Shown: positions 1,317 to 55,671 of the stretch, piece by piece
Position numbering within the stretch: position 1 is the stretch's first letter
Layout of the letters: each line of letters begins with the position of its first letter
Assembly (NCBI GenBank): GCA_020723345.1
Contig: DYJA01000011.1
Coordinates: forward strand, 43,349 to 107,348
DNA: 64,000 nt
From: Candidatus Aquidulcis sp.
GTDB taxonomy: Bacteria; Chloroflexota; Anaerolineae; UBA4142
Reading direction: 5' to 3'
Made by a program: the position numbers and the translations under genes
Notes under the pieces: model-generated
What the model was told of the DNA's origin: nothing
Seen by the model: the letters and a program-made list of their open reading frames with translations, nothing else
Databases searched by the model: none

Positions 1317-1321
1317 TGGCG

Positions 1322-1903: not shown

Positions 1904-1919
1904 TGTTTCCGCCCCCTCC

Positions 1920-3200: not shown

Positions 3201-3260
3201 CGCGTTTGTTTCAATAGCCCTTGCACATTCTTATTTATTCGTTCTTCCAACTCGTGCGCT

Positions 3261-3941: not shown

Positions 3942-4240
3942 ATTCGTTCACCTTGCGCGCAATCGCGCAGATCGAAGAACCACGTCCAAAATGTGAATCG
4001 TCGTTTGGGCAAACACCGCCAACCCGCTTGCCGCACCCACTCCGCCAGCCGCTGGGCGCCATAGCGCACAAAGAGCCAGCGCAACTCCAACCAGTCGCCC
4101 CACGCCAACGTTCGCTCGATCACCGTAAACGCGCTGCGCTCGGGGTCGAGGTCTTCCAAGTTGTATTCTTGGAAAAAAGGGCGCAGACTCAATGGGATGC
4201 CTGCTGGCGTCATTTCGAGTTGATCATCCTGACCTGCCAT
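3929..4240 (-). CDS. Small partner protein of the AbiEii-like gene (resembles the DUF6922 family from memory); putative antitoxin/regulator
   Basis: 103 aa. ..[51 protein letters not shown]. Overlaps both the hsdM stop and the AbiEii start, which suggests translational coupling. Confidence 0.45.
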
Positions 4241-18268: not shown

Positions 18269-18269
18269 G

Positions 18270-26088: not shown

Positions 26089-26145
26089 TCTGAAAACAGG
26101 ATTGCAGGCGCACAACGTTCATCAAATCCTCTGTGAGGGTGATTT

Positions 26146-30538: not shown

Positions 30539-30548
30539 GAATTACACA

Positions 30549-31568
30549 ATGTACATCGCATTGATTTCAGACATTCACGCCAACTTGCAGGCATTGGAAG
30601 CGGTCGAGCAAGATGCGCGTCAACTGACGCAAGAAAACAGTCGCTTGGATCATAGAACCCCTGAATTGCGTTTTTGGTGTCTGGGTGACATTTTTGGACG
30701 CGGACCTAGCCCGGACCTTGTTTGGGAGCAGGTCACAGAAACCATCAGACCAGATTGCTGGGTAGTCGGGAACCACGATCAAGACCTCGTGCGTTTGATT
30801 GATGACCCCTCCATCGTCAGCGATGTGGCAAAGCGCAAGCAATGGGAAAAGGAGTTTAGGAGCGAGAGCGATGCGTGGACGATTGTTCAGCATTGGGTGT
30901 ATCTGCAAGACATCGGGTGGGCGGGCGAGATCAAGCGACGAATTGGCAACTTGCCGTCGATGGCTTCCCCTCTGCCGGGCGTTTATCTCGCGCATGGTAG
31001 TTTTGGCTTGAACAAACGCCCCCCGGCAGAGCGACCGAGAGAATGTGTGGAAGAACCAATCACACAGCATTACCAGGTCGCTACCACTTGGGAAACGCTA
31101 TGCGATTTTGTAAAGCATCCTAGCGCGATTCAAGGGTTTCAACGCATGCATCAAGAGCGGTGGGAAAAGCCCAGTGTGATGATTGTGGGGCATTCGCATG
31201 TGCGAAGCTTTTACAAATTTGAAAAAGACAAGTGGCATCCGTCCCTCGTCATCAATGATAGCAAGATCGGGGTGTGGCTTGATTTGCCCAATACCCCCAC
31301 CCAACCGGTTCTGATCAACCCGGGGAGCGTGGGTTCGCCGCGTCTGCCCAAAGATCATATCGCGCCGAAAGATCTCTGCGCCAGTTACGCCGTGCTAGAC
31401 TGGAACGCGCGTAATCCCCGAATTATGTTTCGCCGCGCACAGTATAATCGCAAGGAAACGATCAGATTATTGATAGAGGGGCAATATCCCTCCAAGGTGT
31501 ACGCAAAATTGAAAGACAATTGCACTCACTCTCATAGCCATCAGTGTCCATGGTGTAAGGAGTCATAA
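30549..31568 (+). CDS. Calcineurin-like metallophosphoesterase
   Basis: MYIALISDIHAN (DxH), GDIFGRGP (GDxxDRG-like), VVGNHD (GNHD), VGHSH. Starts 10 nt after the upstream stop. Confidence 0.85.
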   Translation: MYIALISDIHANLQALEAVEQDARQLTQENSRLDHRTPELRFWCLGDIFGRGPSPDLVWEQVTETIRPDCWVVGNHDQDLVRLIDDPSIVSDVAKRKQWEKEFRSESDAWTIVQHWVYLQDIGWAGEIKRRIGNLPSMASPLPGVYLAHGSFGLNKRPPAERPRECVEEPITQHYQVATTWETLCDFVKHPSAIQGFQRMHQERWEKPSVMIVGHSHVRSFYKFEKDKWHPSLVINDSKIGVWLDLPNTPTQPVLINPGSVGSPRLPKDHIAPKDLCASYAVLDWNARNPRIMFRRAQYNRKETIRLLIEGQYPSKVYAKLKDNCTHSHSHQCPWCKES

Positions 31569-31569
31569 C

Positions 31570-34197: not shown

Positions 34198-34234
34198 GGT
34201 TCTCACATCACCAGTCTTACAAAGGAGGTAGACT

Positions 34235-37200
34235 ATGGCGATCAAACCTGTACCCTCATTGATCATTGGGCTGGGTGGCACCGGCGTAACGGTGGCGACC
34301 TATGTCAAAAAGGACCTGCTCGAAATCAGCGAGACGGACGGCGTGCCAGCGGGTGTTCAGATTCTTGCCTTTGACACCGAAGCCACGAACCGTGTGCACG
34401 TAGGTGGCTGGGGCAGACCGCGCCGAACCGGCGAACGGCGCACCGGACCGGTGGAACTGGGACACGGCGAATATGTCCACATTGGCGGCAATGTCCTCGA
34501 TCTGGCGAAAGAAGTCGCCGAAGGACAGCATTACTATCTGGGAACTTGGTGGAACGCCAGCCAATATCTTGCCGAAAATTTACCGGCGGATTTGTGGCAC
34601 CTGAACAAAGGCGCGGGACAATTCCGACAATTTGGCAGAATGGCGCTCTTTCAAAACCGAGTGACCGTGACGAATATGCTGACTGCCGCAATGAATAGCA
34701 TTCGGCGGGGCGCGCCCGGCGCGACTGATTTGTACGTGCATATCACGGGCTCCTTCGTCGGCGGTACCGGCGCAGGGCTTTTTGTGGACATTGCGCACTT
34801 GGCGTCTGTCGTTGCCAAACAACAGAATCTGGACAAGGTGTCTGTGCGTGGGTATTTTGTGCTTGTAGACGCCTTTCTTGGCACACCCCAAGTGAAACTC
34901 GAAGACCCGCGCTTGAAAAGCACCTACCAAGCGCAAGCATACGCCTGCCTGCGCGAATGTAGCCGCTTGGTCTCGGCGACGGATTACGCGACCGGTTACC
35001 CAATGAATTATGCAGATGAAGGCGATCCCGAACTTTTGCGCGGTAGGATCACGAAACGCCCGTACGACGCGGTATATCTTTTCGATGGACATCGCATCTA
35101 TAATCCCCTCACGACTTCTCGGATTGAAGATGGGATTGCGCCCACGATTGCAGATGCCATCGTCGCGCACGTAGACGCCAAGTCCGGTGCCAAGTTTACC
35201 TCACACACGGTCAATTCGGATAAGCAACGCACGGCGCTCAAGATCCCAGCAGATATTCCCACTTTTGGCGCGTTGGGTACTTTTACATTCGTTCTGCCCA
35301 TCTTTCACATCGTCGAAGAATGGACGCACCGCCTCGCCAAAGAAGCATTGGACGAATTGCTCGTGCCAACCGATTGGTCGAAAGATACCGGCTTGCCGAA
35401 TTCGCCGTTAGCCACAAACAAACGCGGCGGGATGAAAGCAGAACCGCTTAACGATGGCGCGGACAAGGGACGCGAATGGTTGAGACGAAGTTCCCCAACC
35501 GCTTTCACCCAGGATTTGGGCGAACAGGGCGCGAGATACAGCAGATCAGCCACGCGCTCCGAGGTTGAGGGGGAAATCCGGAATCGCACCACCGAAGACT
35601 GGATCAAGTTGCTCAAGCCCGAAGATCAGTCCGTAATGACAAGCGACAACATCGAACGCGCGACGATTGTGCTGGAAAGCGATATTACAAAGGAAAAAGT
35701 CAAGCGCGGCGGGCAAATGGAAGGCAACGAATACTATGTCCATCCCAGCCCCGGCGGGAGCGATCGTGATCAAGCGGATCAGGTAGCAAATGAGGTGCGT
35801 CGGATCTTTAAAATTTTGATCGGCGAGGAAGATGACGACACCGGGCGTCGAAGCGGGGGACGCGTCAAGGTGACGCTCGATGAATTAAAAGCCACGCACA
35901 TCAAGAAATTCCGCACGCAACTGCGCGTACTAATCGAGGAAACCTTGAATGGTTTGAAGGGCGCGGACGCGTTCGAAGCCAAAGCAGGCAAACTCGGTTA
36001 TATGATCGCTTTTCTCCGCCAGGTGCGGGATGATTTGCAACAAGCGCAATTGGCAATCGAAAAGACCGAAGGCGCGCAGCGGTCTACGGGAACGAGCCGC
36101 CAACGGCAGACTGGAAGCCGACGGGAAGAATCCGAAACTCTGCTTAAGGAACTGATCGAGAAAATGCAAAAGGGCGGCGGGCTTTTCGGCGCAAATCGCA
36201 AAGAGTACATAGCCAAAGCCCAGCAGTACCTCCAAATCCTCAAAAGCGAAATTGCCGAGCGCGTCGCGTTTGAAACCGTGCGCGATCTGGTTCTAACGGC
36301 GGACAACACGCTCGCCGAAGTGAATGGCTGGGCGGAAGCGTTAGGACATCGGAATGTGAAAGAAGGCGGTGTTTATGCGCTGGTGCTTGAGGGGCGCGCG
36401 AATAACCAGCATGACCGGGAGCGCAACGCGGAAGCCCGAGTTCGCGAACAGGTCAGCGATTTGACCTATGAAAATGGTAAATACAGTGACTATGTCTCGC
36501 GGGGCGGGGTAGCGAATTCCCGAACGCAACTCAAGCAAATCCTAGGCGAATTGGCGTGGACCGCGCACATTGACGAAAATACGGGGCGGATCCGATTAGG
36601 GCTCAATTTGGGGGAAAAGGGAGAACAAGAATTCAGTTCGGAAAAGGGACAGAACATTGGCGCGGTGAATGGAAAAATATTTCTTGAGCGTTGCCGAGCG
36701 GTTTTCAAGCCGGCGTGGGACGATCTTTCCATTCTGCGTTACCTAATGGACAATTACGGTCCGGCGCGCCAGAAAACGATGGAGGATCTGGCAAAACTGA
36801 TTCATCAAAAAACCGGACCTCTGCTAGAGGTCCGCGGCGATCAACCCTTGCCCGCCAACTTTTTGCGCGTGAATTTGGAAAGTGTCGGCGAAGCCCAAGC
36901 GGGCTCCGATCAACAACAGCAAGCCCAAGCGCGCAGCGTGTTCATGCAACAACTTGCCGATGAGTTGGGGAGACTCAACCATGTTCAAGTTGAGCGAACG
37001 GTCATCGAAGATGGCAAACCCGAAACTTCCAAGTTTGTGGATTACGCCGACTCGATGGATCGCTTCAAGTTGGGGTTTGTCTACTTTAGCGAACTCAACC
37101 AACCCAAGAACATCGCGACTTTTAGCGGGGGCGTGAGCGACTATCGCGCGTATCCGGTAAAACAACGGACCTATTTACATATCTTTCCGGCGGAAGAGCA

Positions 37201-38239
37201 TACGGTTCGTTACGAAAGCCAACTGGCGCAGATGGCAATGGGTGACCAACGCCGTCCACAACGCCCGCGTGAGATCGAAGATCGCGTGGTCGTGCAATTG
37301 GAAGACCTGGCTCGTTTTCGCCTGATCGCGCATTGCTTGGCTTATGGCAACCCCAATTTTGATTGGGGGCAAGGTGTTAGGGAAACCGGCGCGTTACTCT
37401 ACGAGGATGTGCCGTCCAACAATCCACCGGGCGCAAACCCGGACAGCAAGGCAGTCTACCGTTTGATGGTTGAACCGACCGGTGTATCGCGGAATGGAAT
37501 ATTGGTCAACCCAATGACGAACAAGCCCGCCAGTCCCAAATATTGGGATTTGACCCAATTGGCTGAAATCCCCAGTCTCTTGGACGCGATCAACCAGTTC
37601 AACTACAAAAAACACGCAGTCGGCAATGTAGAGGATACGCTGGATGACTATCGCATCCAAACGACATTGGATAAAGCGATTGATGCCGATTGCGTGCGTC
37701 GGATTGCCAAGGGATTCCCGTGGCTGCCTCCTGCTGGGATGAGCAAGGATCAAGTACAGGAGGCGCAAAAGCGCGTGGCGCAGTATCTGCGGTACCAAGC
37801 CGAGGTCAAAGTATGGGAGACTCGATTGTTGTCACAAGACTATCGAGATGCGGTGATGCCAAGCACGCCGCCCAAAGCAGTCGCGCCTGAAATTCAACGC
37901 GAGGCGGATTTGCTCACGATGTTGATCCTCGTGCTGAACGAAGAAATCCGCACCCTGAATGGACAGATTGAACGATACGGAGGCGAGTGGGATTGGGCGT
38001 TTGCTGAACCGGAGGAAATTCAGCCGGAGCAAGTGCTCCCTCCGATGCCAGAGACGACTGTGCCTCAGGGCGTTACCTGTCCAAACTGCGGCACTAGCAA
38101 TTCGGAGGATGCGAACTTTTGCAAGAAATGCGGCGCGCAGTTAGGTGCAAAACTCGCCAAGTGTCCGAAATGCGGCAGAGAGTACGACTTGGCGGACACA
38201 AGTTTCTGCCCGAAGGATGGGAGTAAGTTGACGCCATGA
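34235..38239 (+). CDS. Giant tubulin/FtsZ-like (Pfam Tubulin_2-type) protein with helical body and C-terminal double zinc ribbon
   Basis: SD AAAGGAGG. T1-like SLIIGLGGTGVTV, ILAFDTE, T4/tubulin-signature-like ITGSFVGGTGAGLFVDIAHL. C-terminus CPNCG..CKKCG..CPKCG..CPKDG. Confidence 0.8.
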   Translation: MAIKPVPSLIIGLGGTGVTVATYVKKDLLEISETDGVPAGVQILAFDTEATNRVHVGGWGRPRRTGERRTGPVELGHGEYVHIGGNVLDLAKEVAEGQHYYLGTWWNASQYLAENLPADLWHLNKGAGQFRQFGRMALFQNRVTVTNMLTAAMNSIRRGAPGATDLYVHITGSFVGGTGAGLFVDIAHLASVVAKQQNLDKVSVRGYFVLVDAFLGTPQVKLEDPRLKSTYQAQAYACLRECSRLVSATDYATGYPMNYADEGDPELLRGRITKRPYDAVYLFDGHRIYNPLTTSRIEDGIAPTIADAIVAHVDAKSGAKFTSHTVNSDKQRTALKIPADIPTFGALGTFTFVLPIFHIVEEWTHRLAKEALDELLVPTDWSKDTGLPNSPLATNKRGGMKAEPLNDGADKGREWLRRSSPTAFTQDLGEQGARYSRSATRSEVEGEIRNRTTEDWIKLLKPEDQSVMTSDNIERATIVLESDITKEKVKRGGQMEGNEYYVHPSPGGSDRDQADQVANEVRRIFKILIGEEDDDTGRRSGGRVKVTLDELKATHIKKFRTQLRVLIEETLNGLKGADAFEAKAGKLGYMIAFLRQVRDDLQQAQLAIEKTEGAQRSTGTSRQRQTGSRREESETLLKELIEKMQKGGGLFGANRKEYIAKAQQYLQILKSEIAERVAFETVRDLVLTADNTLAEVNGWAEALGHRNVKEGGVYALVLEGRANNQHDRERNAEARVREQVSDLTYENGKYSDYVSRGGVANSRTQLKQILGELAWTAHIDENTGRIRLGLNLGEKGEQEFSSEKGQNIGAVNGKIFLERCRAVFKPAWDDLSILRYLMDNYGPARQKTMEDLAKLIHQKTGPLLEVRGDQPLPANFLRVNLESVGEAQAGSDQQQQAQARSVFMQQLADELGRLNHVQVERTVIEDGKPETSKFVDYADSMDRFKLGFVYFSELNQPKNIATFSGGVSDYRAYPVKQRTYLHIFPAEEHTVRYESQLAQMAMGDQRRPQRPREIEDRVVVQLEDLARFRLIAHCLAYGNPNFDWGQGVRETGALLYEDVPSNNPPGANPDSKAVYRLMVEPTGVSRNGILVNPMTNKPASPKYWDLTQLAEIPSLLDAINQFNYKKHAVGNVEDTLDDYRIQTTLDKAIDADCVRRIAKGFPWLPPAGMSKDQVQEAQKRVAQYLRYQAEVKVWETRLLSQDYRDAVMPSTPPKAVAPEIQREADLLTMLILVLNEEIRTLNGQIERYGGEWDWAFAEPEEIQPEQVLPPMPETTVPQGVTCPNCGTSNSEDANFCKKCGAQLGAKLAKCPKCGREYDLADTSFCPKDGSKLTP

Positions 38240-38383
38240 GTTGGAGGATGCGTTCCACTATAAGCCAACTGCCATCAGCATTGTCAGAATAGCAAGAATC
38301 CGTTACTCACAAGAGGATTGGCATGTGGGAAAATAGAATTGAATGATCACATGCCAGTCCGATTGGAACACTGCGAGGTGTCC

Positions 38384-40690
38384 ATGTCTGCCGGGCTGCC
38401 ACAATTTCTTAACGATCGCGAAGCAGATAGAGATTTGCTCGATTTTACCCCATATACTGAGACACTGGTGGATATCGTTCGGGATGAGAATAACCACGGT
38501 CCCTTGGTGATTGGACTTTTCGGGACTTGGGGTAGCGGCAAAACATCATTGATGCATTTTGTCGAACACGCATTGCAACACCCTTCATCCGAGAATGTGC
38601 AACAGTTTCGGATTGTCTGGTTTGACGCTTGGAAATACGAAAAGGAAGAATCGCTATGGCGTGCGTTGTTGCTTCGCGTTGTTGATGCTCTGCGGGATCG
38701 CAACGAGGAAGGTGAGGATACCACTTCATTCAATCGTCGTCAACGAATTGAGAATCTTGAGCAACGCTTGTACCGTGACGTTGAATGGGAAGAAAAAGCC
38801 GGAATTACGATAGACTGGGCAAAGTTGGGACGGTTTGGTTTAGGTGGCGCAATCAAGCTATCCTTTGCTTTTGTGCCAGGTCTATCGCATCTGGTCGAAA
38901 CCGTAAAGTCAGCGCAGGGCGCGCTGGGCAAAGCTGAAGGCATAAACGATCTGTTCGATACTTTTCGGCGGAATGTGGTCACGCATCACCAAGCGCAGCT
39001 AAACTCAATCGAACAGTTTCAAAATGAATTTGGAAAACTCGTTCAGCAGTATGTTATATCCCAAAATCAGCGTCTAGTTGTGTTTATTGATGATCTTGAC
39101 CGTTGTCTACCCGAAAAGGCAATTGAAGTCCTTGAGGCAATCAAACTCTTTCTCGACGTCAAAGGATGTATTTTCTTGCTGGGACTTGACCAAGACGTAA
39201 TTGCGCGGGGCATCAAAGTCAAGTACCGAGGGTTTGCTAGTGCATCGGCAAATGATGAATCCGCGATACCTATTGATGGCGTGCAGTATCTTGAAAAGAT
39301 TATTCAACTGCCCTTTCGTTTGCCCAAGATTGAGCCGCAGGAGATGAAACCATTTATCAAGAATCTGTTGGAATTTTCCGATGTCCGCTGCGCGGATGTT
39401 TTTGCTGAAGGGTTGGAAACTAATCCACGCAAGGTCAAACGCGCAATCAATATTTTCCTATTTGTCTCTCGTCTGGCTGAGCGTCGCAAACTCCGAATTT
39501 CCCAGGTTCGCCTCGCCAAGGTGATTGTCATCTATCACAATCACCCGATCTTGTATGATCGCTTACGCAAAAACCCCGCACTGTTGCGGGATGTAGAAAA
39601 ATATTTTGAGGAGCAACTCCCCAAGTCTTCCAAAGATCAAACGCACAATCTCGAAGCTCCAACGAACCAAACTATTACTCCACCAGTTGGAGAGCATTTG
39701 CTTGCCGACGATGCTTTAAGGCGCGTGATGACTCTCTATTTGCGAGACTACGATGCTTGTTTTCAAACAGCAGACTATACCGAACTCGACTCGTATTTCA
39801 CATTGACTCGCGGAACTGTTATTGATCCTCTGGTACAATCCGCTAAAAATGTTACGACTATGTCAACGGCACTCGGTTTTCCGATTCCGATTTTCGTGCG
39901 GATTCCCGAAGGCGAATTTCGGATGGGCACTTCGGATGAAGATATTTCACGCTTGGCGCAAATGCCAGGAACGCAAACCTGGGCGAGAGAATCGCAAGAG
40001 AAAGAATACTTTAAAGAAGAGAAACCGGATCGTTGCGTATATCTGAATGAATTCGAAATCGCGAAATACCCTGTGACCTATGAACAATATCAGGCGTTCA
40101 TTAAGGCGACGCGACATCCTGCTCCAAGAGATTGGTCAGGTGATTTGTTTCGGGATGGGTTTGAATCGCATCCTGTGGCCAATGTGAGTTGGATTGATGC
40201 TATAGCATACTGTCGTTGGTTGACCGAACAATTACGCAACATCAATAATCTACAGAACAACGAAATAGTTCGGTTGCCGATCGAAGCAGAATGGGAAAAA
40301 GCCGCTTCATGGGATGCTTTGGGACAAAAGAAACGCATTTGGCCATGGGGCGACACTTGGCAAAGTGAAAACTGCAATACAAGAGAAAAAGGAATCGGCA
40401 CCACAACTCCTGTTGGAAAATTCTCGCCCAAGGGAGATAGCCCTTATGGCATTGCCGACATGGCAGGCAACGTGTGGGAATGGTGTGCCGATTGGTACCA
40501 ATCTGATTATTATGAAAATGCTTCCAACAGGAATCCCTATAACGCATCTGCTGGACAATATCGTGTCGCACGAGGGAGTTCGTGGTATGGCGATCAGGCA
40601 GATGCAAGATGCGCTTTTCGGTTTTCGTATGCTCTCAATGTAAGTGGTTTTGATTTGGGTTTTCGTTGCGTCAAAGGTCAACCAGTGTAA
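38384..40690 (+). CDS. KAP-family P-loop NTPase fused to a C-terminal formylglycine-generating-enzyme (FGE/SUMF1, C-lectin-like) domain
   Basis: Walker A GLFGTWGSGKTS. Walker B/KAP box VVFIDDLDRCLPEKAIEVLEAIKLF. FGE motifs HPVANVSWIDAIAYCRWL, GNVWEWCADWY, VARGSSW. Start uncertain: 38384 has a GAGG SD, and the track gives TTG at 38318. Confidence 0.85.
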   Translation: MSAGLPQFLNDREADRDLLDFTPYTETLVDIVRDENNHGPLVIGLFGTWGSGKTSLMHFVEHALQHPSSENVQQFRIVWFDAWKYEKEESLWRALLLRVVDALRDRNEEGEDTTSFNRRQRIENLEQRLYRDVEWEEKAGITIDWAKLGRFGLGGAIKLSFAFVPGLSHLVETVKSAQGALGKAEGINDLFDTFRRNVVTHHQAQLNSIEQFQNEFGKLVQQYVISQNQRLVVFIDDLDRCLPEKAIEVLEAIKLFLDVKGCIFLLGLDQDVIARGIKVKYRGFASASANDESAIPIDGVQYLEKIIQLPFRLPKIEPQEMKPFIKNLLEFSDVRCADVFAEGLETNPRKVKRAINIFLFVSRLAERRKLRISQVRLAKVIVIYHNHPILYDRLRKNPALLRDVEKYFEEQLPKSSKDQTHNLEAPTNQTITPPVGEHLLADDALRRVMTLYLRDYDACFQTADYTELDSYFTLTRGTVIDPLVQSAKNVTTMSTALGFPIPIFVRIPEGEFRMGTSDEDISRLAQMPGTQTWARESQEKEYFKEEKPDRCVYLNEFEIAKYPVTYEQYQAFIKATRHPAPRDWSGDLFRDGFESHPVANVSWIDAIAYCRWLTEQLRNINNLQNNEIVRLPIEAEWEKAASWDALGQKKRIWPWGDTWQSENCNTREKGIGTTTPVGKFSPKGDSPYGIADMAGNVWEWCADWYQSDYYENASNRNPYNASAGQYRVARGSSWYGDQADARCAFRFSYALNVSGFDLGFRCVKGQPV

Positions 40691-40726
40691 ATAAACGAAT
40701 CAAGAATAACTTGATAGGAGCCTTTT

Positions 40727-41686
40727 GTGCCTACTGGTATTCCCGATATTTCTCAAATGGTACTTCGTGAAATCTTGGCAGGTAAGTTAGTACCCTTTTT
40801 AGGAGCAGGTGCTAGTCTGTGTTCACGCTCCAGAACTTCAAGTTCTTCTAAACCAGGTACGTATCCTCCCAGTTCACAGGATCTATGTAATTCCTTGGCG
40901 CACAGGTTTGCTTACCCAAGTGGATCTGAAACACCTAATTTGATGCATGTATCACAATATGCCGAAGTCTTTAACGGACGGGTAGCACTATATGACGAAT
41001 TGCACAAGCATTTCGAACCCAATTATCAACCGACTGTACTACATTACTTTCTTGCTAATCTTCGCCGAACACTAATTAGGAAACATTTGCCTTTTCATCC
41101 AATGCTTATCGTTACAACAAACTATGACACGATGCTTGAGAGTGCATTCGATAAAGCGAACGAACCCTACGACCTAGTGTATTACACGGCAGATGGAAAA
41201 GACAAAGGGTTGTTCAAACATATTCCATACGGTGGCAAGGAGGAAACCATTTATAAATTGAACGAATATGATAAATTTCCTGTAAAATACGGCGAGATCC
41301 AACGCACAATTATCCTAAAGATGCATGGGCACGTGAATAGAGCCGAAAGCGCAAAGGATAGCTATGTTATAACAGAGGATCATTACATCGATTATTTGGC
41401 CTATAATGACAAAGTAAGTCCCCTGCCAGCAATACTATGTCAGCAATTAAAGCTTAAACATATTCTTTTTTTGGGGCATAGTTTAAATGATTGGAACCTT
41501 CGCGTTATTTTACGCCGTGTCTGGGCAGATGTTGAATTTGACTCTCGGTCATGGGCGATTCAACTTGATCCTACAGCCATTGATCAAGAATTGTGGAGGA
41601 GACGCAACGTGATTGTTTTTCCAAGCGATCTAGTTTCATTTGTTGCCAATCTCAGAGCTTCTTTCAGCGGATACAAACCCGGGTGA
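40727..41686 (+). CDS. SIR2-like (SIR2_2) domain protein, predicted NAD-consuming effector
   Basis: SD TAGGAG then GTG 40727. LVPFLGAGAS, IVTTNYDTMLE, ILKMHGHV (catalytic His), ILFLGHSLNDWN. Confidence 0.85.
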   Translation: MPTGIPDISQMVLREILAGKLVPFLGAGASLCSRSRTSSSSKPGTYPPSSQDLCNSLAHRFAYPSGSETPNLMHVSQYAEVFNGRVALYDELHKHFEPNYQPTVLHYFLANLRRTLIRKHLPFHPMLIVTTNYDTMLESAFDKANEPYDLVYYTADGKDKGLFKHIPYGGKEETIYKLNEYDKFPVKYGEIQRTIILKMHGHVNRAESAKDSYVITEDHYIDYLAYNDKVSPLPAILCQQLKLKHILFLGHSLNDWNLRVILRRVWADVEFDSRSWAIQLDPTAIDQELWRRRNVIVFPSDLVSFVANLRASFSGYKPG

Positions 41687-41691
41687 AAATT

Positions 41692-44600
41692 ATGTCCATT
41701 GCACATACCATAGCGAAACCATATAAAGGGCTAGCGCCTTTCTCTGAATCTGACGCGAATATTTTTTTTGGTCGCGAGCAAGAATGTGAGGTGGTTGCTG
41801 CCAACCTACTAACTTCGCGTTTCACTGTTGTTTATGGTGCAAGTGGTGTTGGTAAAAGTTCGCTTTTACGTGCTGGCGTTGTCCATTATCTAAGTACGCT
41901 TGCACAAAAGCGTTTGCAGAGTAGCACTGAAGAACGTAATACTCCGGAATTCATTGTTATTGTTTTTGATAGGTGGTCGGGAAATCTAGTTGGTGGTCTA
42001 TCAGAGCAAATTAGACAAGTACTATCGCCTTTTGTACAGTCCTATGATCTTGGATTCCAGCCAAACGATTCTATTCCAGATTTGGTAGACAAGTGGAAAC
42101 AAGCAACGCGGTCTACACTTCTTGTAATTCTAGATCAATTTGAAAGCTACTTGGCTTATCATCCTGAGGTAGATGAGTTTACCACTCAGTTATCTGACGC
42201 CATACGAACAGAAGGGCTCGGGATAAACTTCTTGATTTCGATCCGTGAGGACTCACTGGCAAAATTGGATCGATTTGAGGGTTATATTCCCAATCTCTTT
42301 GATAATAATATACGCATCAATCGGCTCGGTCGTACACCCGCGAAAGAAGCAATTGAAAACCCAATTCGCAAATTCAATGAAATAAACAAAACTGAAATTC
42401 GAATTGAGCCGGAACTTGTTGAAACCGTGTTAAATGAAGTGACCGCTGGTAAGATTATGGGGGTAGTTGAAGGTTCCAGATTCTCTATTTCCAGCAAGGA
42501 TGAGGTGGATGCCCCTTATTTGCAACTGGTAATGGAACGACTGTGGAAAACAGAAATAGAGGCTGGCTCCGATGTATTGCGTTTGAAAACGCTTCACGAA
42601 GTAGGTTATGCCGAGTCTATTGTCAGAAAACACCTTGACGATAAGATGGAGGAATTAGATACGCCAGAGCAAAATATTGCCGCGCAAATCTTTCGCTATC
42701 TCGTAACACCATCAAGAGCGAAGGTTGCCTATTCAGCGAGTGATCTTGCTGCTTACACCAACTTGAAAAAAAATGAAATTACTCTAGTGCTCGAAAAACT
42801 GTCGAGTACTGATTCAAGAATTGTCCGTTTGCTTTCTCCTCTATCTAATCAACATCCTGCGATCCGATATGAGATTTTTCACGATGCTCTTTCGGCTGCG
42901 GTTCTAGATTGGCGAGCAAGATTCGTTCAGAAACAAAACGCGTATATTCAAAAACAGAGAAGTATTGCTTTTGCGCGTGAGCTAGCGGCAAATTCAATTT
43001 CCCAGATGCAACAAGATCAGGATCTATCAGTTCTTTTAGCTCTTGAGGCACTCCGTATAGAGGAAATTCCCCAAGCCTACAGTGCTCTCAGACTGGCAGT
43101 AGTGCGTTCCTATATGCGATATATTATTCGTGATCACCTCAGACCCGTGAAATGTGTAGCCTACAGTCCTGATGGACAATATTTGCTGACGGCTAGCGAT
43201 GATTGCACCGCGCGGATCTGGACAGCTCGGTATCGCCCAGTAAATTTGATGCAACATGAAAGCCCTGTGCTCGGCGCAGTGTATAGTCCTGATAGCAAGT
43301 TTATCTTGACTTTTTCAAGCAAGCGCGCATTCGTATGGACTAATAAAGGAAACCTATCACACGAATTGAAAGGACATTCTGAAGATATTACCTGTGCTAC
43401 GTTTAGTGCTGATGGTCAATTTGTCGCTACGTCCAGCAAGGACATGACTGCAAGGGTTTGGACTACTAAAGTAGGAACACCGATCGCTCAAATGGTAGGT
43501 CACTCGCGCTCAGTTAATTGTATTACCTTCAACCCTGACGATGAATTTGTTGCAACCGGTAGCGATGATGGTATGGTCAAAATATGGGAAGCTAGTAGCG
43601 GTAAGCTTCGAACAGAATTACGTGGACACGAAGGGCCTGTTGACCACATTTCGTACTACCCGAAGGGCATTGCAGACAACGAACTTCTTCTTACTTCAGG
43701 ACAGGATAATATTGCGCGAGTATGGAATACCAGGTCAGGTCTGTGCCTTCAAGCATTACGTGGCCATACCGGTATTATTACTAGTTCACTATTTAACAAC
43801 GATGGCACTCGTATTTTGACAGCCAGCGAAGATGGCACCGTGAGAATTTGGGATACCCATATGGGAATGCTCCTGGCTGTTTTGCGTGGGCATACAGATC
43901 CCGTGCTTGACGTTCTTTTCACTCCCGATGGTAAATTCATAATTACAACCAGCGGCGACGAAACAAGCCGGGTGTGGGATGCCATAATTGGTGATTGCAT
44001 ATTGGTATTGAGGGGGCATCGCGGGGCAGTAAGAACGGCAACTGTTAGTGGAAAGGGCAACATCATCGTAACTGGCGGTGAAGACGCAAAGGTGAGGATT
44101 TGGCAGTCACACCTAATGCGTGCCCCTCTCGAGCTTAGGGGATATGAAGATCAATTGCTCGGTATTTCTTTCGGCCACGACAATAATTGTGTTGTTGCTT
44201 TTGGCACAAATGCAATTGCTCGAACATGGGAGGTCACCTCAGGCAAGTCGCGTTTAGTACTTGATGGACATGAATCGCGATTACGTTCTGTGTCCTTCAG
44301 CTACCATAACAACCAGATTTTGACGTCTAGCGATGATGGGACAGCGAGATTGTGGAGTGCTACTACAGGGCAGTCCTTGGGAACTTTGCGTGGACATCTT
44401 GGATCAGTGTACAACGCGCTTTTTAGCCCAGATGATAGATTGATAGTAACTAGTGGAGTCGACAAAACTGTACGAATTTGGGATTTGGACAAGAAGGACT
44501 TGAATTCCCAGATATTGGTGCAAGGGGATAATATCAGTTGCCTTTCCATTAGTCATAATGGTAAATTTCTGGCTGTTGCTCGTGGCAACCAAAGTGCCGT

Positions 44601-45234
44601 TGTGGAGATCTGGAATCTGGTTGGGCGGCGATGTACAGCAAAGTTGTCAGGTCACAATTTAACAATTTATGGTGTCAATTTTAGTTACAATGACGAGTAT
44701 CTAGTAACTGCGAGTGATGATAGCAAAGTGTGTGTTTGGGATGTGTCTACTGGGAAATGCCTGAAAAATTTATCTACTCACAAGAGTTGGGTCAGACAAG
44801 CCATATTTAGTCCAGACAACAAATATATTGCAACAGCCGGTGGGGACAATACGGCCAAAATCTGGGACGCGGAAACTGGCCAAGTTACTGTCGATGTGCT
44901 ACACGCAGCTCCGGTGAATACTGTAGCATTTAGCCCCAATGGACAACTTGTTGTTTCGGCAAGTTTGGACAATACTGTGAAATTATGGGATGTTTTGTAT
45001 GGTTGGCTACTTGAAGAGTTTCACGGACATACTAAACCTGTGCAGTGTGTTGCATTTAGTCCAGATGGAAACTATGTCGCCACAGCAAGTCTGGATGGGA
45101 TAGGACGATTATACTCAATCAAAGAATATCAGCCCGAACAGATTCGAACATTGGCTCGTGAGAAAATATCTAGAAACAAAAAAGAGCTCACTCCTGCTGA
45201 AAGAAGAAGATATTTGCACGACTGGGTAACTTGA
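41692..45234 (+). CDS. STAND-class NTPase (NACHT/nSTAND-like) with about 16 WD40 repeats
   Basis: ATG lies 5 nt after the SIR2 stop. YKGLAPFSESDANIFFGRE. Walker A VVYGASGVGKSS. Walker B LLVILDQFE. Repeated GH..V..v.FSPDG..laTaS.D.T.r.W units. Confidence 0.9.
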   Translation: MSIAHTIAKPYKGLAPFSESDANIFFGREQECEVVAANLLTSRFTVVYGASGVGKSSLLRAGVVHYLSTLAQKRLQSSTEERNTPEFIVIVFDRWSGNLVGGLSEQIRQVLSPFVQSYDLGFQPNDSIPDLVDKWKQATRSTLLVILDQFESYLAYHPEVDEFTTQLSDAIRTEGLGINFLISIREDSLAKLDRFEGYIPNLFDNNIRINRLGRTPAKEAIENPIRKFNEINKTEIRIEPELVETVLNEVTAGKIMGVVEGSRFSISSKDEVDAPYLQLVMERLWKTEIEAGSDVLRLKTLHEVGYAESIVRKHLDDKMEELDTPEQNIAAQIFRYLVTPSRAKVAYSASDLAAYTNLKKNEITLVLEKLSSTDSRIVRLLSPLSNQHPAIRYEIFHDALSAAVLDWRARFVQKQNAYIQKQRSIAFARELAANSISQMQQDQDLSVLLALEALRIEEIPQAYSALRLAVVRSYMRYIIRDHLRPVKCVAYSPDGQYLLTASDDCTARIWTARYRPVNLMQHESPVLGAVYSPDSKFILTFSSKRAFVWTNKGNLSHELKGHSEDITCATFSADGQFVATSSKDMTARVWTTKVGTPIAQMVGHSRSVNCITFNPDDEFVATGSDDGMVKIWEASSGKLRTELRGHEGPVDHISYYPKGIADNELLLTSGQDNIARVWNTRSGLCLQALRGHTGIITSSLFNNDGTRILTASEDGTVRIWDTHMGMLLAVLRGHTDPVLDVLFTPDGKFIITTSGDETSRVWDAIIGDCILVLRGHRGAVRTATVSGKGNIIVTGGEDAKVRIWQSHLMRAPLELRGYEDQLLGISFGHDNNCVVAFGTNAIARTWEVTSGKSRLVLDGHESRLRSVSFSYHNNQILTSSDDGTARLWSATTGQSLGTLRGHLGSVYNALFSPDDRLIVTSGVDKTVRIWDLDKKDLNSQILVQGDNISCLSISHNGKFLAVARGNQSAVVEIWNLVGRRCTAKLSGHNLTIYGVNFSYNDEYLVTASDDSKVCVWDVSTGKCLKNLSTHKSWVRQAIFSPDNKYIATAGGDNTAKIWDAETGQVTVDVLHAAPVNTVAFSPNGQLVVSASLDNTVKLWDVLYGWLLEEFHGHTKPVQCVAFSPDGNYVATASLDGIGRLYSIKEYQPEQIRTLAREKISRNKKELTPAERRRYLHDWVT

Positions 45235-45280
45235 CTCCAAAATCCTATCAAGCAATTTCCGACCGAACCGGAGGATCACC

Positions 45281-48200
45281 ATGTCCCGTAACCTATCTCA
45301 CTTGAGCAAATTCATCGCATTGTTGTTCGTTGGCGCGCTGTTGCTGGTGTCTGCCAGCACGGCGTTTGGGCAAACCAATTCCGCTGTCACCTTTCAGCGC
45401 GTAGTCGCGCCTAATGTGCTTCCGTACGGGCAGGGCGAATTTACCGTAACCCTCACGGTGAGCGGCAACAGCGCCGGGTGCGGCACCCAAGTCGCGCGTA
45501 AACCACTAGACATTGTATTGGTGATTGATCGCTCCAGCAGTATGGGGAACTTGTTAGGTTTTCTTGGCGGCAAATCCAAGCTGGACAGCGCCAAAGAAGC
45601 CGCCAAAGTCTTTCTCTCCAAAGTCAATCTGGGGAACGACAAGGTCGCGCTGGTTCAATTCAACGAAGCGGCTAATTTGGCTCAACCATTGGATACCAAT
45701 CGTCAGACATTGGACAAGGCGATTGATGGCTTGGTCTCGTCCGGTAACACCAGTCTTGATCGTGGGGTTGACGTGGCGCGCCAGGAACTTAAAAGCGCGC
45801 GCCGTCGTTCAAACACCAATGGTGTGATCATCCTGCTTTCCGACGGCGAAAGCGATGAGACGAGCGCGCGGAATGCGGCTGATGCGGCGAAGAGGGATGG
45901 CTTGCGCGTGATTACAATTGGTTTGGGGAGTGGCGCGAATCAAAATTTGTTGCGTTCACTGGCTTCTCAATCCAGCGACTATTACTATTCGCCGGACACG
46001 AATAATTTGACTTCGATTTATGAAAAGATCGCCGAGAGTGTCAAGCAATTCGTCGCGGCAACTGATCTGACGCTCAAGCATACGATTGAAGTCAGCGCAT
46101 TTCAGATTGTCCCCAACTCAATCTCGCCAGCCCCCGCGACGATTTCCGTGGACACCATCACTTGGAAACTCGATTCGCTCGGCGATACCCAGCAGACTTT
46201 TACGTACAAACTCAAACCTATCGCGCAGGGGAATTTATTGATTGATCGAGGTGACACACTCACTTTTACGCAGTGTGAAAAGGCGCCTAGTACTATCTCC
46301 GAAAAGCCGGGTTTGCCCGTGCAAGTGCTCGCGCCGACGGCGACTGCCACGCGTCCTCCAACGTCCACGCGGACGGCGACCCCCTTGCCTACTCCAACAC
46401 CCACTTTCAATGAAATGGTTCAACAAACAACCTGTGATTATGGCACGAGTTTGCCGCCGTGGTTGCTCTGTCTCGTGCCGTTGCTGATGTTGTTCTTCAT
46501 CGTGTACTTCTTGCGAATTGTAAGGGAATTGCAAGAAAAGCGCAAACCGTGTCCGCTGATTTGGTGGCTTTTGCTCCCGCTCGCGTTCATTTTGCTTTGC
46601 TTGATCCTAAACCAACTCTTGAACGCGGCATGTGTCGGCGGCGAATCAGTTTATTTCTGGAAAATTGATTCGTTTGGAGGTTCGGGTATTTACGTCAGTA
46701 GTCGTGACGGTGTGCGTCCTGCCCTGCCCTTCCGCGAAGTGAATTCGAGCAGCGGGTGCGTGGCGTGCCACGCCGTCTCCTCGACAACGCATCGGATCGC
46801 GGCGATTAGCGGCGGCGGCGTTGGCCCCGTCGTCGTCTATGGCTTGGACGGCAAACGGATTGATATACCCGGCGTGACAGGATCGTTCTTGAATTGGTCG
46901 CCGGATGGAACCAAACTTGCTATTTCAACAGATCGCCGGCAAATCGTGATTATGGATGCGGATGGCGGCACGATCACTCCACTCGCCGGCGCAAGTGAAA
47001 GTAATGTGGCGCAGTTGATGCCGGCGTGGTCACCCGACGGAACTACGATTGCCTTTGTGCGCTCGAACGATCCTTCTGGAACCTATCGCGCGGATTCGGC
47101 TTCGGATATCTATACTGTGCCCGCTACTGGTGGGGTTGCCAAGCCGCTGCCCGGCGCAAGCGGCAGAGGATTCAACTACTATCCTGCCTATTCGCCGGAT
47201 GGCAGATGGATCGCTTTTACGCATCATATTAGCGGCACGACGACGTACTCGGATCCCTACGCCGAGATCTATATGATTCCGGCGGAAGGCGGCACACCGA
47301 TTCGGCTTGCCGCGAATGATACCCAAGACGGCAGACGCTTGACCGGCATCAGCAACTCGTGGCCCACCTGGTCGCGCGACGGTCAAACGCTGGCGTTTAA
47401 CAGCAAGCGCAACGGCAACCAGTACGATATTTTCACCACGCGCATCAACCCGGACGGAACTTCGGGTCCGGCAATGTTGTTGTCCAGCGCGGCAGATGGA
47501 CGCGCGTTCGAGCATTTGCCATTCTGGGGCGAGCCCCCAAAAATGGATCCATGGGCGGGAGTGTTGGGGCTTTGGCCGTGCCTCATTCCATTCCTGCTGA
47601 TTCCGATCCTGTACTTGCTTTGCTGGTACTTCACGCGTCGTCGGATCGACATTATTGAGGTAGATGCAACCCCTGTTCGTCCAAGACCGGGACCTTTGCC
47701 ACCACTTGTGCTTAATCCTACTTGGCAAGTTGCGCCCGCGCTCATCATCGGTGTAGGCGGAACCGGACGCTGGGTGTTGACGCATCTGAAAAAGTCTTTG
47801 CTTGATGGCGGAATCGGCAAACTGCCGCCGGGTGTGCGCTTTGTTCTGCTTGATACTTCGGAAGAAGAAACGAACACGCTGATGGACGCTAACGGTAAAC
47901 CGCAAGCGGTCGAATTTGCCGGCGTGCGGTTGGAACCGAGCGAAATGTTGCTCCTGCAGGATAGTCTCGAAAATGTCGTGCGAACAATGCGCGCCAACCC
48001 AAATGTCGAGCCGGCATTGCAAGGTTGGCTTCCGACCGAACGCTACGCTCAACTACCCGCCGGACAGGTCAACCTTGCGGAAGGTACGCGCGGACGCCGC
48101 CCGATGGCGCGCGCCGGTCTGATAAAGAAAATGCTCGGCGAAGCCGAACGGCAGACTGGTTCGACGACGGACGCTAAACAGATTTGGAATCTGCTTGCCA

Positions 48201-50629: not shown

Positions 50630-50707
50630 AGATGCGGGATTCCCCGTCGTACAGGTGCTCGACTGGGAGACCTTGCCTGATCGCATCACCATGTTTATGG
50701 AGCAACA

Positions 50708-54406: not shown

Positions 54407-54468
54407 TTCTGTTGTATTATGGCAGAACGCAATCCGATTGTTATGGCTAGCCGTAGGAGACCAATCAA

Positions 54469-55479: not shown

Positions 55480-55671
55480 CTGCCGAGTCCTTGAAAATTG
55501 ATCGCACTTTACTCAGGGCGTGGAATGAATGAAACGCTGCGTTCTGCACCCTTTGCCGTAACTCCACAATACTTTTCCCCGCTATCTCACACGCGCTACG
55601 CCAGATCGGGGTGAATACTCCAACGAATCATCACAATTTGCAAGGTGTCATCATGGTCAAAGGATTTCGTA

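Follow-up and report, generated by a model that had tools for sequence, protein, structure and literature searches.

Two predicted anti-invader modules in a probable laterally acquired segment between the tubulin-like genes of a vWA/FtsZl1 operon

Why do three AT-rich genes of families typical of defence islands lie between two tubulin-like genes of one operon? The original prediction read them as a horizontally acquired defence cassette, or as a sign that the locus recruits such modules. Our analysis of the window, that is the whole 64-kb stretch of DNA, indicates that positions 38240-45280 are probably a lineage-specific, laterally acquired insertion at a place where two FtsZl1 (Pfam Tubulin_2) genes are normally neighbours with only a short spacer. 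Within it are two predicted anti-invader modules, independent of each other, which follow one another head to tail in the same direction as the operon. The defence function of all the inserted genes is predicted from homology.

Composition of the segment

The G + C content was 0.446 across 38240-45280, compared with 0.545 in the upstream tubulin-like gene (Tub1, 34235-38239) and 0.563 in the downstream one (Tub2, 45281-50629). Third codon positions carry most of the drop: GC3 was 0.445, 0.359 and 0.381 in the inserted KAP-FGE, SIR2 and STAND genes, 0.607 in Tub1, 0.616 in Tub2 and 0.45-0.68 in the remaining genes of the window. Maximum-likelihood segmentation of the range 31-52 kb with two breakpoints placed these at 38280 and 45330, near the gene borders, with a GC of 0.446 inside versus 0.544 outside. 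In tetranucleotide usage, 3-kb windows within the segment were removed from the remainder of the window by z = 5.4-7.5 and those elsewhere by at most 3.4, the composition being atypical relative to the 64-kb window only. The hand-counted GC values behind the original prediction were reproduced (0.433 for 39301-39360, 0.417 for 42241-42300, and 0.567 for both 35401-35460 and 47401-47460), and the GC and k-mer profile, set beforehand as its refutation test, showed a sharp discontinuity at both borders. The window is otherwise not uniform, a second and weaker AT-rich stretch being present at about 52.6-54.7 kb.

AT-richness is no family trait of either module. In 41 other genomes the mean GC difference between the SIR2-STAND module and its flanks was -0.003, and solo KAP-FGE genes elsewhere have the GC of their hosts. 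Since both modules show host-like GC elsewhere, the AT-richness at this locus points to import.

The SIR2 and STAND-WD40 genes

Pfam confirmed all the domains expected between the tubulin-like genes (KAP-FGE, SIR2 and STAND-WD40), and Tubulin_2 in both flanks. Two of the gene starts needed correction: Logan gene calls and homologue alignments placed the likely start of KAP-FGE at ATG 38384, not TTG 38318, and that of STAND at ATG 41692, not GTG 41593. Nor do the genes make up a single cassette, as had been proposed; they form two autonomous modules, KAP-FGE alone and SIR2 with STAND-WD40.

The SIR2_2-family protein of 319 aa (40727-41686, + strand; gene GC 0.416) matched Pfam SIR2_2 at 5e-22 (78.9 bits, cut-off 24.5) and the ThsA SIR2 model of PADLOC at 2e-16. 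Its GAG, TNYD (N132) and H200 motifs are kept, and residues G26, A27, T131, N132, Y133, D134, H200 and G201 were invariant among 23 homologues. In alignment, H200 corresponds to DSR2 H171, which is the residue altered in PDB entries titled DSR2 H171A. The protein has the Rossmann GAG motif, the asparagine of (T)TNYD and the catalytic histidine that characterise defence-type SIR2 sequences (ThsA, DSR2 and the Avs5 effector), and is predicted to be an NAD+-consuming effector.

Five nucleotides separate the SIR2 stop from the STAND start. The STAND protein (1180 aa, 41692-45234, + strand; whole-gene GC 0.443) comprises an nSTAND1 NTPase (PF20703, 3e-44, 152.8 bits, cut-off 27.1) and about 15 WD40 repeats in two propellers (Pfam WD40 8e-137). 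Walker A (GASGVGKSS) and Walker B (LLVILDQFE) are intact and 15 xW[DENTQS] motifs recur at a spacing of about 42 aa, matching the definition of nSTAND1 NTPases by a P-loop with both Walker motifs followed by superstructure-forming repeats. PADLOC run on the 1213-aa STAND ORF returned only a weak AbiLi match and, owing to the repeats, HEAT-ARM_XIII. The protein falls outside Avs types 1-5, as it matched no PADLOC Avs model and the effector is encoded by a separate gene instead of being fused to its N terminus.

Elsewhere, 79 of 80 loci with a SIR2 homologue have a STAND NTPase gene directly after it, the lone exception ending at a contig edge; here too the two genes are immediately adjacent and co-oriented. 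The 80 loci span Actinomycetota, Chloroflexota, Acidobacteriota, Verrucomicrobiota and other phyla, and none of them had a KAP, FGE or tubulin-like domain nearby.

The arrangement resembles Avs5 (EfAvs5), a SIR2-STAND antiviral NLR-like protein (PMC11897194), in uniting three parts: a SIR2 NADase-type effector, whose catalytic motifs are conserved here, a STAND NTPase and a sensor of C-terminal repeats. Both are also expected to work alike, ligand binding leading to oligomerisation, NAD+ depletion and abortive infection. Unlike Avs5, effector and NTPase are two genes of a predicted system known from sequence, the NTPase is of the nSTAND1 clade, without a PADLOC Avs match, and the sensor is an Apaf-1-like double WD40 propeller, not a set of helical repeats. 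The STAND-WD40 protein is predicted to be an NLR/Apaf-1-like sensor controlling the SIR2 protein. NLR- or Avs-type action seems most likely, in which the WD40 propellers would bind an invader protein, the STAND NTPase would oligomerise in an ATP-dependent manner and switch on the separately encoded SIR2 enzyme, and NAD+ would be destroyed and the infection aborted.

The KAP-FGE gene

The first module is a single gene (38384-40690, + strand; whole-gene GC 0.465) encoding a 768-aa protein of the KAP NTPase-FGS class, with an N-terminal KAP-family P-loop NTPase (Pfam KAP_NTPase 3e-40, 138.7 bits) and a C-terminal FGE-sulfatase-fold domain (FGS, C-type-lectin-like; Pfam FGE-sulfatase 4e-53, 181.3 bits) in one polypeptide, both scoring above their cut-offs. 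Walker A (GTWGSGKTS) and Walker B (VVFIDDLDRC) are intact. Both domains were present in all 120 full-length relatives among the matches listed (2941 in all). Solved FGEs matched at just 1e-18 to 1e-21, behind CalU17 and ToxD. Homologues at 58-59% identity are solo genes in unrelated contexts, their neighbours being DUF559, a Y1 transposase or a PIN toxin-antitoxin pair, and no tubulin-like domain was found at the nearest of these loci that were examined.

Kaur, Iyer, Burroughs and Aravind 2021 (PMC8195603) described NTPase-FGS conflict systems, KAP variants and nSTAND1 among them, and named the KAP ATPase as one NTPase able to replace STAND in FGS proteins. The KAP variant has the same P-loop NTPase with a C-terminal FGS lectin-like domain, and we count the wide spread of the family in filamentous or multicellular bacterial groups as a further likeness. 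Unlike those systems, KAP-FGE has no N-terminal effector or effector-associated domain before Walker A; this motif starts near residue 46, too close to the N terminus for a further domain to fit ahead of it, and no recognisable effector domain was found in the protein. The window also differs in having no diversity-generating retroelement or FGS template repeat: no second copy of the FGS coding region was found within the 64 kb, and no reverse transcriptase among the ORFs scanned there.

PADLOC matched KAP-FGE to QatA (7e-49) and PifA (9e-33) over about 300 residues, and also to PDC-S20. PifA and QatA, of known anti-phage systems, share the KAP NTPase domain but lack the FGS domain, which forms the C-terminal half of KAP-FGE. 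It is not part of a QatABCD system, as its NCBIfam QatA score was 202.7 bits against a cut-off of 600 bits and its neighbours are SIR2 and Tub1, with no QatBCD genes beside it. Most likely KAP-FGE would be a stand-alone invader sensor and switch, one protein acting in a PifA- or QatA-like manner, in which binding of an invader molecule by the lectin-fold FGS domain would control the KAP NTPase.

The Tub1-Tub2 junction in related operons

Tub1 (34235-38239, + strand) is an FtsZl1/Tubulin_2 GTPase of 1334 aa whose C terminus carries a double zinc ribbon (Pfam Tubulin_2 5e-35, DZR and Zn_Ribbon), and Tub2 (45281-50629, + strand) is a 1782-aa fusion of vWA, PD40 propeller and FtsZl1/Tubulin_2 (Pfam VWA 9e-26, PD40 4e-19, Tubulin_2 1.5e-27). 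Both are members of a conserved vWA/FtsZl1 operon of Chloroflexota-type bacteria, with the order 219-aa gene, 824, 653, metallophosphoesterase, vWA-875, Tub1, Tub2 (vWA-PD40-tubulin) and 1232. Tub1 orthologues were found in loci L083, L085 and L086 (80%, 60% and 55% identity), and Tub2 orthologues in L083, L085, L245-L247 and about 15 GTDB loci. The last gene of the locus encodes a DUF4062 (TIR-like NADase family) protein, the body of which is paralogous to an operon gene. In P0113, a Tubulin_2 homologue, the domain is fused to a PF01637 ATPase domain.

Makarova and Koonin 2010 (PMC2875224) described vWA/FtsZl1 operons, and Kaur et al. 2020 (PMC7159879) predicted tubulin and vWA gene sets to be conflict systems. 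These systems pair Tubulin_2 (FtsZl1) with membrane vWA proteins as the host locus does, a likeness of the host operon and not of the inserted genes, and cargo between tubulin-like genes is not reported in the passages covered.

Blastn comparison of the window with its closest relative, L083, found 72-76% nucleotide identity over 25714-37993 and 45270-51708, with nothing aligned between. Synteny therefore ends at 37993, within Tub1, and leaves unaligned the 3' tail of the gene (37994-38239, + strand), a zinc-ribbon region with a host-like GC of 0.557; the protein identity of Tub1 drops from about 0.8 to 0.37 past residue 1260. Tails of the type CPNCG..FCxxCG occur in the window and L244, and three CPHCGEMHP..WKACP repeats in L083, L085 and L086.

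Tub1 and Tub2 are adjacent in 19 of 19 more distant operon versions (16 GTDB-species loci and L245-L247; Tub1 identity 36-38% and <=32%), the distance from the Tub1 stop to the Tub2 start being -20 to 274 nt, and this adjacency is ancestral. The 16 GTDB-species loci have no + strand ORF of at least 50 aa between the two genes; small spacer ORFs are one of 54 aa on the opposite strand in L171 and one of 75 aa in L245. The two closest relatives whose junction is readable, L083 and L085, carry other genes there, four in 3.6 kb (GC 0.43-0.45 versus 0.545) and two in 1.4 kb (0.49 versus 0.56-0.57), respectively. This cargo encodes membrane or secreted proteins, one of them an exported membrane protein with a vWA fold in L083, and includes no recognisable defence genes; the cargo types of the three lineages are mutually unrelated. 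Among these compared loci no difference was found at any other operon junction, and the relatives' spacers held no traces of the KAP-FGE, SIR2 or STAND genes.

The empty junction in the 19 distant loci and the different AT-rich cargo in L083 and L085 indicate a lineage-specific hotspot, and the junction behaves as a recurrent insertion site within this clade. The idea that the locus recruits such modules thus holds for repeated insertion, but not for the kind of cargo in the relatives. The other check proposed at the outset, whether the three genes accompany the tubulin-like genes elsewhere, gave no such case. Being atypical in composition relative to the 64-kb window and absent from the orthologous position in relatives, 38240-45280 fits the operational definition of a laterally acquired segment, which supports the horizontal acquisition originally suggested.

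It is conceivable that the junction instead serves the vWA/FtsZl1 machine as a functional docking site, so that KAP-FGS and SIR2/STAND would be co-expressed and act through or with tubulin-like filaments, not as independent passengers. Cargo is found in three related lineages at exactly this junction and no other, always in the operon's orientation and with short spacers, and Tub2 has no promoter-like site in its 46-nt spacer. The vWA-fold protein in the L083 cargo suits the theme of the host system, and the conflict role predicted for tubulin and vWA sets in PMC7159879, the DUF4062 protein and the P0113 fusion are on the same side. However, both modules are autonomous (tubulin-like domains being near none of the 80 SIR2-STAND loci and none of the examined KAP-FGE loci), 19 operon versions have no cargo at all, the cargo of the three lineages is unrelated, and selection against polar disruption of Tub2 would equally yield co-orientation. 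We consider a docking site unlikely and prefer the insertion of two independent modules.

Junction spacers and route of insertion

The left spacer (144 nt, 38240-38383, + strand; GC 0.465) contains a hairpin with a 14-bp stem at about 38313-38362 and a weak promoter-like match at 38318-38347, and no sequence conserved with relatives was found in it. The right spacer (46 nt, 45235-45280, + strand) includes position 45270, from which blastn again aligns the window with L083. Relatives share no more of this spacer than its final 11 nt, GGAGGATCACC; these are the Tub2 ribosome-binding site, and the junction sequences of the three lineages have nothing else in common. A promoter and terminator scan found no terminator or promoter-like site on the + strand of the right spacer, which suggests that Tub2 is transcribed through the inserted genes and that these are probably co-transcribed with the operon.

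The junction spacers were searched for the insertion scars envisaged in the original prediction, and no scar, target-site duplication, or terminal or flanking repeat was found at the borders. No integrase, transposase or recombinase gene was found in 38240-45280, and no tRNA in the 64-kb window. The sole 7-mer present at both borders, GGAGGAT (38243 and 45270), is Shine-Dalgarno-like. The segment thus has neither the recombinase nor the repeats or tRNA target by which a genomic island or a mobile element with distinct ends is recognised. A discrete element, be it a transposon, an integron-like cassette or a small integrative island, whose own recombinase directs it to the site would agree with the same site being struck repeatedly in related lineages, and transposases do lie nearby (in the window, IS4 at 21206-22639; in L083, DDE genes upstream; in L086, IS110 beyond the locus). 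However, the insert is wholly filled by its three genes, and the lack of these hallmarks and of shared junction sequence makes a discrete element quite improbable. Given the lack of both recombinase and repeats, the likeliest route would be recombination at a tolerated punctuation point of the operon. No candidate donor emerged; the top SIR2 relative is 49% identical, and nothing close occurred on plasmids or viral contigs.

The three genes might also be original to the locus and deleted elsewhere, their AT-richness reflecting low expression or relaxed codon selection. The GC3 of KAP-FGE (0.445) does touch the lower edge of the native range (0.45 in the 219-aa gene), and its nearest relatives among the matches listed are from Chloroflexota, like the presumed host. 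However, on this account more than 19 lineages must each have lost the genes cleanly and independently, and two must have replaced them by unrelated genes, with no trace left in the relatives' spacers; the GC3 of SIR2 and STAND (0.36-0.38) is far outside the range of the window, and homologous modules elsewhere have host-like GC. Such an origin is hardly credible, and lateral acquisition remains the preferred reading.

The locus is present in one sequencing run only, a metagenome with about 9x depth. Logan contigs, from an independent assembler and the same reads, cross both junctions (32177-38920 and 43279-45497) with no mismatches, and word depth is flat at 8.8-9.7 (9.2-9.7 inside the segment, 8.8-9.4 outside). 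Although the low-depth metagenome source and the abrupt composition break might suggest a lower-GC fragment of another organism joined into the contig, the chance of such a chimera is negligible, since both junctions are spanned at even depth by the second assembly and the genes keep the operon orientation, with reading frames intact up to both borders.

Comparison with other nested defence genes

The segment is a clean but fairly ordinary example of imported (predicted) defence genes. Defence genes nested in other operons are exemplified by PrrC or Abi genes inside type I restriction-modification loci. As in such nested genes, and in the core defence hotspots of Pseudomonas (bioRxiv 10.1101/2022.11.11.516204), variable cargo of foreign composition lies between conserved flanks and differs among relatives. 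Unlike the core hotspots, the flanks here are not housekeeping genes but a pair of paralogues, both FtsZl1 tubulin-like genes from a single operon, and the cargo of relatives is not recognisable as defence. The window also holds a type I restriction-modification locus with a nested AbiEii gene.

Composition and borders of the AT-rich segment

The GC content in sliding windows falls from about 0.54 to 0.39–0.48 over approximately 38.2–45.3 kb of the window and then rises to 0.55–0.59. A likelihood search for two GC breaks within 31–52 kb placed them at 38280 and 45330, at most 50 nt from the gene borders, with a GC content of 0.446 inside and 0.544 outside. The segment (38240–45280) carries three genes on the plus strand, KAP-FGE (38384–40690), SIR2 (40727–41686) and STAND-WD40 (41692–45234), with GC contents of 0.465, 0.416 and 0.443 and GC3 values of 0.445, 0.359 and 0.381, respectively; ATG 38384 and ATG 41692 are probably the true starts of the first and the third, rather than the longest-ORF starts. 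The flanking tubulin-like genes Tub1 (34235–38239, plus strand) and Tub2 (45281–50629, plus strand) have GC contents of 0.545 and 0.563 and GC3 values of 0.607 and 0.616, and GC3 was 0.45–0.68 in all other genes measured in the window.

The original prediction of an AT-rich three-gene defence cassette dropped between two tubulin-like genes was based on hand counts, which were reproduced on recounting: the two inner 60-nt samples have a GC content of 0.433 and 0.417 and both outer samples 0.567. The k-mer discontinuity that it anticipated was also found: 3-kb windows within the segment reach a tetranucleotide z of 5.4–7.5 relative to the remainder of the window, against at most 3.4 elsewhere. 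Pfam returned the domains that it had named, namely KAP_NTPase and FGE-sulfatase, SIR2_2, nSTAND1 and WD40, and Tubulin_2 in both flanks. A weaker second AT-rich stretch (52600–54700; GC 0.44–0.49, tetranucleotide z up to 3.4) covers the 3′ half of the 1232-aa gene and extends into the beginning of the gene that follows it.

The sequence is contained in a single public run, a subsurface metagenome. In Logan, an independent assembly of that run, contigs corresponding to 32177–38920 and 43279–45497 span both borders with zero mismatches, and the assembler depth is flat (8.8–9.7) over 31–51 kb. The cassette is thus not an assembly artefact; since the Logan assembly was built from the same reads as the window assembly, this comparison tests the assembler, not the sample.

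The host operon and the ancestral Tub1-Tub2 junction

Homologues of Tub1 were found at 80, 60, 57, 55, 38, 37 and 36% identity, with many others at 34% or less. The contigs of these homologues share a conserved co-directional operon, which starts with a 219-aa gene and two larger ones (about 820 and 650 aa) and continues with a metallophosphoesterase, a roughly 875-aa vWA protein, Tub1, Tub2 (with vWA, PD40 and Tubulin_2 domains) and a protein of about 1200 aa. A single-protein search of one-genome-per-species contigs gave no match, and a search of metagenome contigs gave a lone, irrelevant match of 49 residues. An alignment-based search, with one genome per species, succeeded and revealed the same gene order in many Anaerolineae, other Chloroflexota and a few other phyla. 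Because this arrangement recurs in Anaerolineae and other Chloroflexota, we refer to the host as Chloroflexota-type. The locus fits the vWA/FtsZl1 operons that Makarova and Koonin described (2010, PMC2875224) and is similar to the tubulin and vWA sets that Kaur et al. (2020, PMC7159879) count among predicted conflict systems.

In 16 species-representative loci the distance from the Tub1 stop to the Tub2 start is −20 to 274 nt, and none has a plus-strand ORF of 50 aa or more between the two genes; the sole ORF of that size in these gaps (54 aa, locus L171) is on the opposite strand. Tub1 and Tub2 are also adjacent in the three relatives at 36–38% Tub1 identity, save for one 75-aa ORF, and in Candidatus Chloroploca mongolica (locus L167, 9977–20518) Tub1 and the vWA-PD40-Tub2 gene apparently form one open frame of about 3500 codons. 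Adjacency of Tub1 and Tub2 is therefore the ancestral state. The apparent fusion, if not a sequencing error, would link both tubulin-like proteins functionally. In a 1644-aa Tub1 homologue (P0113), Tubulin_2 and a PF01637 ATPase domain share one polypeptide; such direct fusions of tubulin-like domains with an AAA/STAND-like ATPase are rare.

Unrelated cargo at the same junction in close relatives

The 80% relative (L083/L084) aligns with the window at 72–76% nucleotide identity over 25714–37993 and in a second stretch that begins at 45270 and lasts until the relative's contig ends; no nucleotide alignment was obtained for the interval between the two. At this junction L083 has four other genes of 206, 304, 366 and 203 aa (3.6 kb), and the 60% relative (L085) has two genes of 127 and 233 aa (1.4 kb). 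In L086, the relative at 55%, there is no cargo, but a second Tub1-type gene comes next. All cargo is co-oriented with the operon and of lower GC content than its flanks (0.43–0.45 versus 0.545 in L083, 0.49 versus 0.56–0.57 in L085). The cargos of L083, L085 and the window are mutually unrelated, those of the relatives have no kin elsewhere in the window, and the other operon junctions showed no variation among these loci. As the closest relatives hold unrelated AT-rich cargo, and solely at this junction, we conclude that the Tub1-Tub2 junction is a recurrent insertion site confined to one clade. The original prediction that the genes were dropped into an older locus agrees with the relatives, in which Tub1 and Tub2 are adjacent in distant loci and separated by different cargo in the closest ones. 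Its suggestion that the locus recruits such modules holds for the site but not for the content, since the relatives' cargo is not recognisable as defence. As the site is documented in its ancestral form, empty and with alternative cargo, this is a well-delimited case of imported immune genes. The operon that received them belongs to a poorly known group of phylum level, the uncultured Chloroflexota-type bacteria of a subsurface metagenome.

The cargo of the relatives had no match at meaningful E-values in Pfam, PADLOC or NCBIfam, and by sequence appears to consist of membrane, signal-peptide and Pro/Thr-rich proteins. The 366-aa protein of L083 has ten relatives in 1.8 billion representative proteins. 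Its model (eight-sequence alignment, pLDDT 73) has a signal peptide, a vWA fold, visible only by structure prediction, and a C-terminal membrane helix; Foldseek matched it to vWF A domains (E 1e-6 to 2e-8, target TM about 0.6). An hhalign comparison with the profile of the operon's own vWA protein (about 875 aa) showed no relation. The four-gene module (L083, 14275–17676) was found in the same order in L252 (1417–4656), downstream of a zinc-ribbon membrane protein and apparently outside a tubulin context.

Two separate modules

The three genes were confirmed as predicted, but not as a single unit: KAP-FGE alone and SIR2 with STAND are separate modules. We surveyed 80 loci with full-length SIR2 relatives (38–46% identity), spanning Actinomycetota, Chloroflexota, Acidobacteriota, Verrucomicrobiota, Gemmatimonadota, Proteobacteria and Firmicutes. 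An nSTAND1 NTPase homologue lies directly downstream of SIR2 in 79 of them, the exception ending at a contig edge, and the NTPase carries WD40 repeats in 48. None of the 80 has a KAP, FGE or tubulin-like domain near SIR2. The SIR2 family is large (at least 2306 protein clusters at E ≤ 1e-40; nearest relative 49% identical), and with this synteny the split pair of SIR2 and nSTAND1 is a module of two genes that is very common. The pair is not in PADLOC v2 and we found no experimental study of it, which makes so common a module a cheap candidate for a phage-defence test.

The KAP-FGE fusion likewise forms a large family. All 120 full-length homologues listed (of 2941 matches in all) contain both domains, and those listed with a taxon name all come from Chloroflexota or Anaerolineae. 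A partial sequence reaches 88% identity. The two nearest placeable full-length homologues (58–59%) are solitary genes with no SIR2 or STAND nearby, one flanked by a DUF559 gene and a Y1 transposase, the other adjoining a PIN toxin pair. Since each module stands apart elsewhere, their pairing is particular to the window, and the GC3 of 0.445 versus 0.36–0.38 is compatible with separate origins.

Origin of the insert

AT-richness intrinsic to these gene families was ruled out by their host-like composition elsewhere. In 41 genomes with long flanks, the mean difference in GC content between the SIR2-STAND module and its surroundings was −0.003, with the module lower by more than 0.03 in only 10%, and both solitary KAP-FGE genes match their host. 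As the modules are host-like elsewhere, the deficit of 0.10 in the window points to import, fairly recent and from a donor of lower GC content. Tblastn searches of plasmids with SIR2 and KAP-FGE, and of viral contigs with the SIR2 family, gave distant matches only. Horizontal acquisition, as originally proposed, is thus supported by the composition break, the junction comparison and the host-like GC content elsewhere. The insert is an instance of known phenomena, defence-type genes imported at a hotspot, and no new kind of system; its predicted NLR-like and KAP-FGS (KAP NTPase with an FGE-sulfatase-fold domain) systems are already known types.

Junction spacers and the Tub1 tail

Insertion scars, expected in the original prediction, were not found: there are no flanking direct or inverted repeats, and no recombinase or tRNA at the borders. 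GGAGGAT, present at both borders, was dropped as a 7-bp duplication since it is probably a Shine-Dalgarno motif. Scanning the window for Rfam families and tRNA genes gave no match.

At about 38313–38362, within the left spacer (144 nt), there is a hairpin whose stem measures 14 bp. A strong hairpin follows the Tub1 stop in most operon versions (L083, L085, L086, L171, L173, L176, L179, L180, L188, L189, L209, L247 and the window), with stems of 12–17 bp, often perfect, and z to −9.7; its sequence varies by locus and its structure recurs. It may be a terminator or attenuator, or an RNA-processing site, at a sub-operon boundary. This recurrence suggests that the Tub1-Tub2 spacer punctuates the operon at a place where insertions are largely harmless. 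The insert itself marks one junction of the vWA/FtsZl1 operons as insertion-tolerant, which is useful for dissecting or engineering such operons.

Only the last 11 nt of the right spacer (46 nt), with the Tub2 ribosome-binding site, are common to relatives. It contains no promoter-like match and no plus-strand terminator-like match, and Tub2 therefore presumably depends on transcription through the cassette. These scans discriminate poorly: promoter-like matches (26) were modestly more numerous than the shuffled mean (16.5, sd 3.5), and terminator-like matches were near the shuffled mean; the sole promoter-like match at a junction is weak (38318–38347).

Nucleotide similarity to the closest relative stops 246 nt before the Tub1 stop. 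The Tub1 tail (37994–38239) is a double zinc ribbon (CPNCG..FCxxCG) in the window and in L244, and consists of three CPHCGEMHP..WKACP repeats in L083, L085 and L086. With its different type and host-like GC content (0.557), the tail looks to have been swapped independently, outside the AT-rich import.

Proposed function of the modules

SIR2 has a GAG loop, a TNYD motif and H200, invariant in 23 homologues; in alignments H200 corresponds to DSR2 H171, which is mutated in the inactive form that has been deposited. By analogy with Avs5 (PMC11897194) and other SIR2 defence proteins, a ligand would bind the WD40 propellers of STAND, which would oligomerise in an NTP-dependent manner and should then activate SIR2, leading to NAD+ consumption. 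That the gene order is strict and the spacer 5 nt long speaks for a physical SIR2-STAND partnership, and as neither protein has an adaptor domain, the contact would probably be direct.

The functional reading of KAP-FGE is of lower confidence. Its architecture is one of the NTPase-FGS counter-invader types of Kaur et al. (2021, PMC8195603), who propose that an invader molecule is sensed by the lectin-fold FGS domain. Its KAP domain resembles PifA and QatA, but the protein falls below the QatA family cut-off. No effector domain was found in it, no diversity-generating element is linked to it within the window, and a search for a DGR template repeat matching the FGS domain found none.

A probable immune neighbourhood

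Taken as a whole, the window gives the impression of an immune neighbourhood. Its type I restriction-modification locus (3–5864, minus strand) comprises hsdR (3–1316), hsdS (2025–3200) and hsdM (4224–5864). Nested in it are an AbiEii toxin gene (3261–3941) and a Y1_Tnp-like ORF (1322–2020). Just upstream of the tubulin-like operon are a CHAT (caspase-like) protease with TPR repeats (14996–18346) and an IS4-family transposase (21206–22639), both on the minus strand, and at the distal end of the locus is a DUF4062-headed protein (55645–57585). According to a 2026 preprint, DUF4062 is a TIR-like NADase family ('Swarozyc').

The insert gives slight circumstantial support to the idea that these tubulin-like loci reside in immune neighbourhoods. 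The setting lends some colour to a bolder idea, in which the operon is a cytoskeleton-based envelope immune machine and the FtsZl1 spacer its dedicated expansion slot, where foreign sensor and effector modules would be captured, co-transcribed and wired to the tubulin-like filaments. The operon would be a chassis swapping recognition and killing parts, KAP-FGS and SIR2/nSTAND1-WD40 here and the vWA-fold membrane module elsewhere. We regard this, taken as a whole, as very improbable. Because the modules are autonomous elsewhere and many operons are cargo-free, it is far more likely that they are passengers in the operon.

The AbiEii gene inside the type I restriction-modification locus is a second case of nested defence in the window. 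The body of the DUF4062 protein is paralogous to the 824-aa gene of the operon (26146–28620), and as a query this protein matched orthologues of that gene in the loci L083, L086, L167 and L168.
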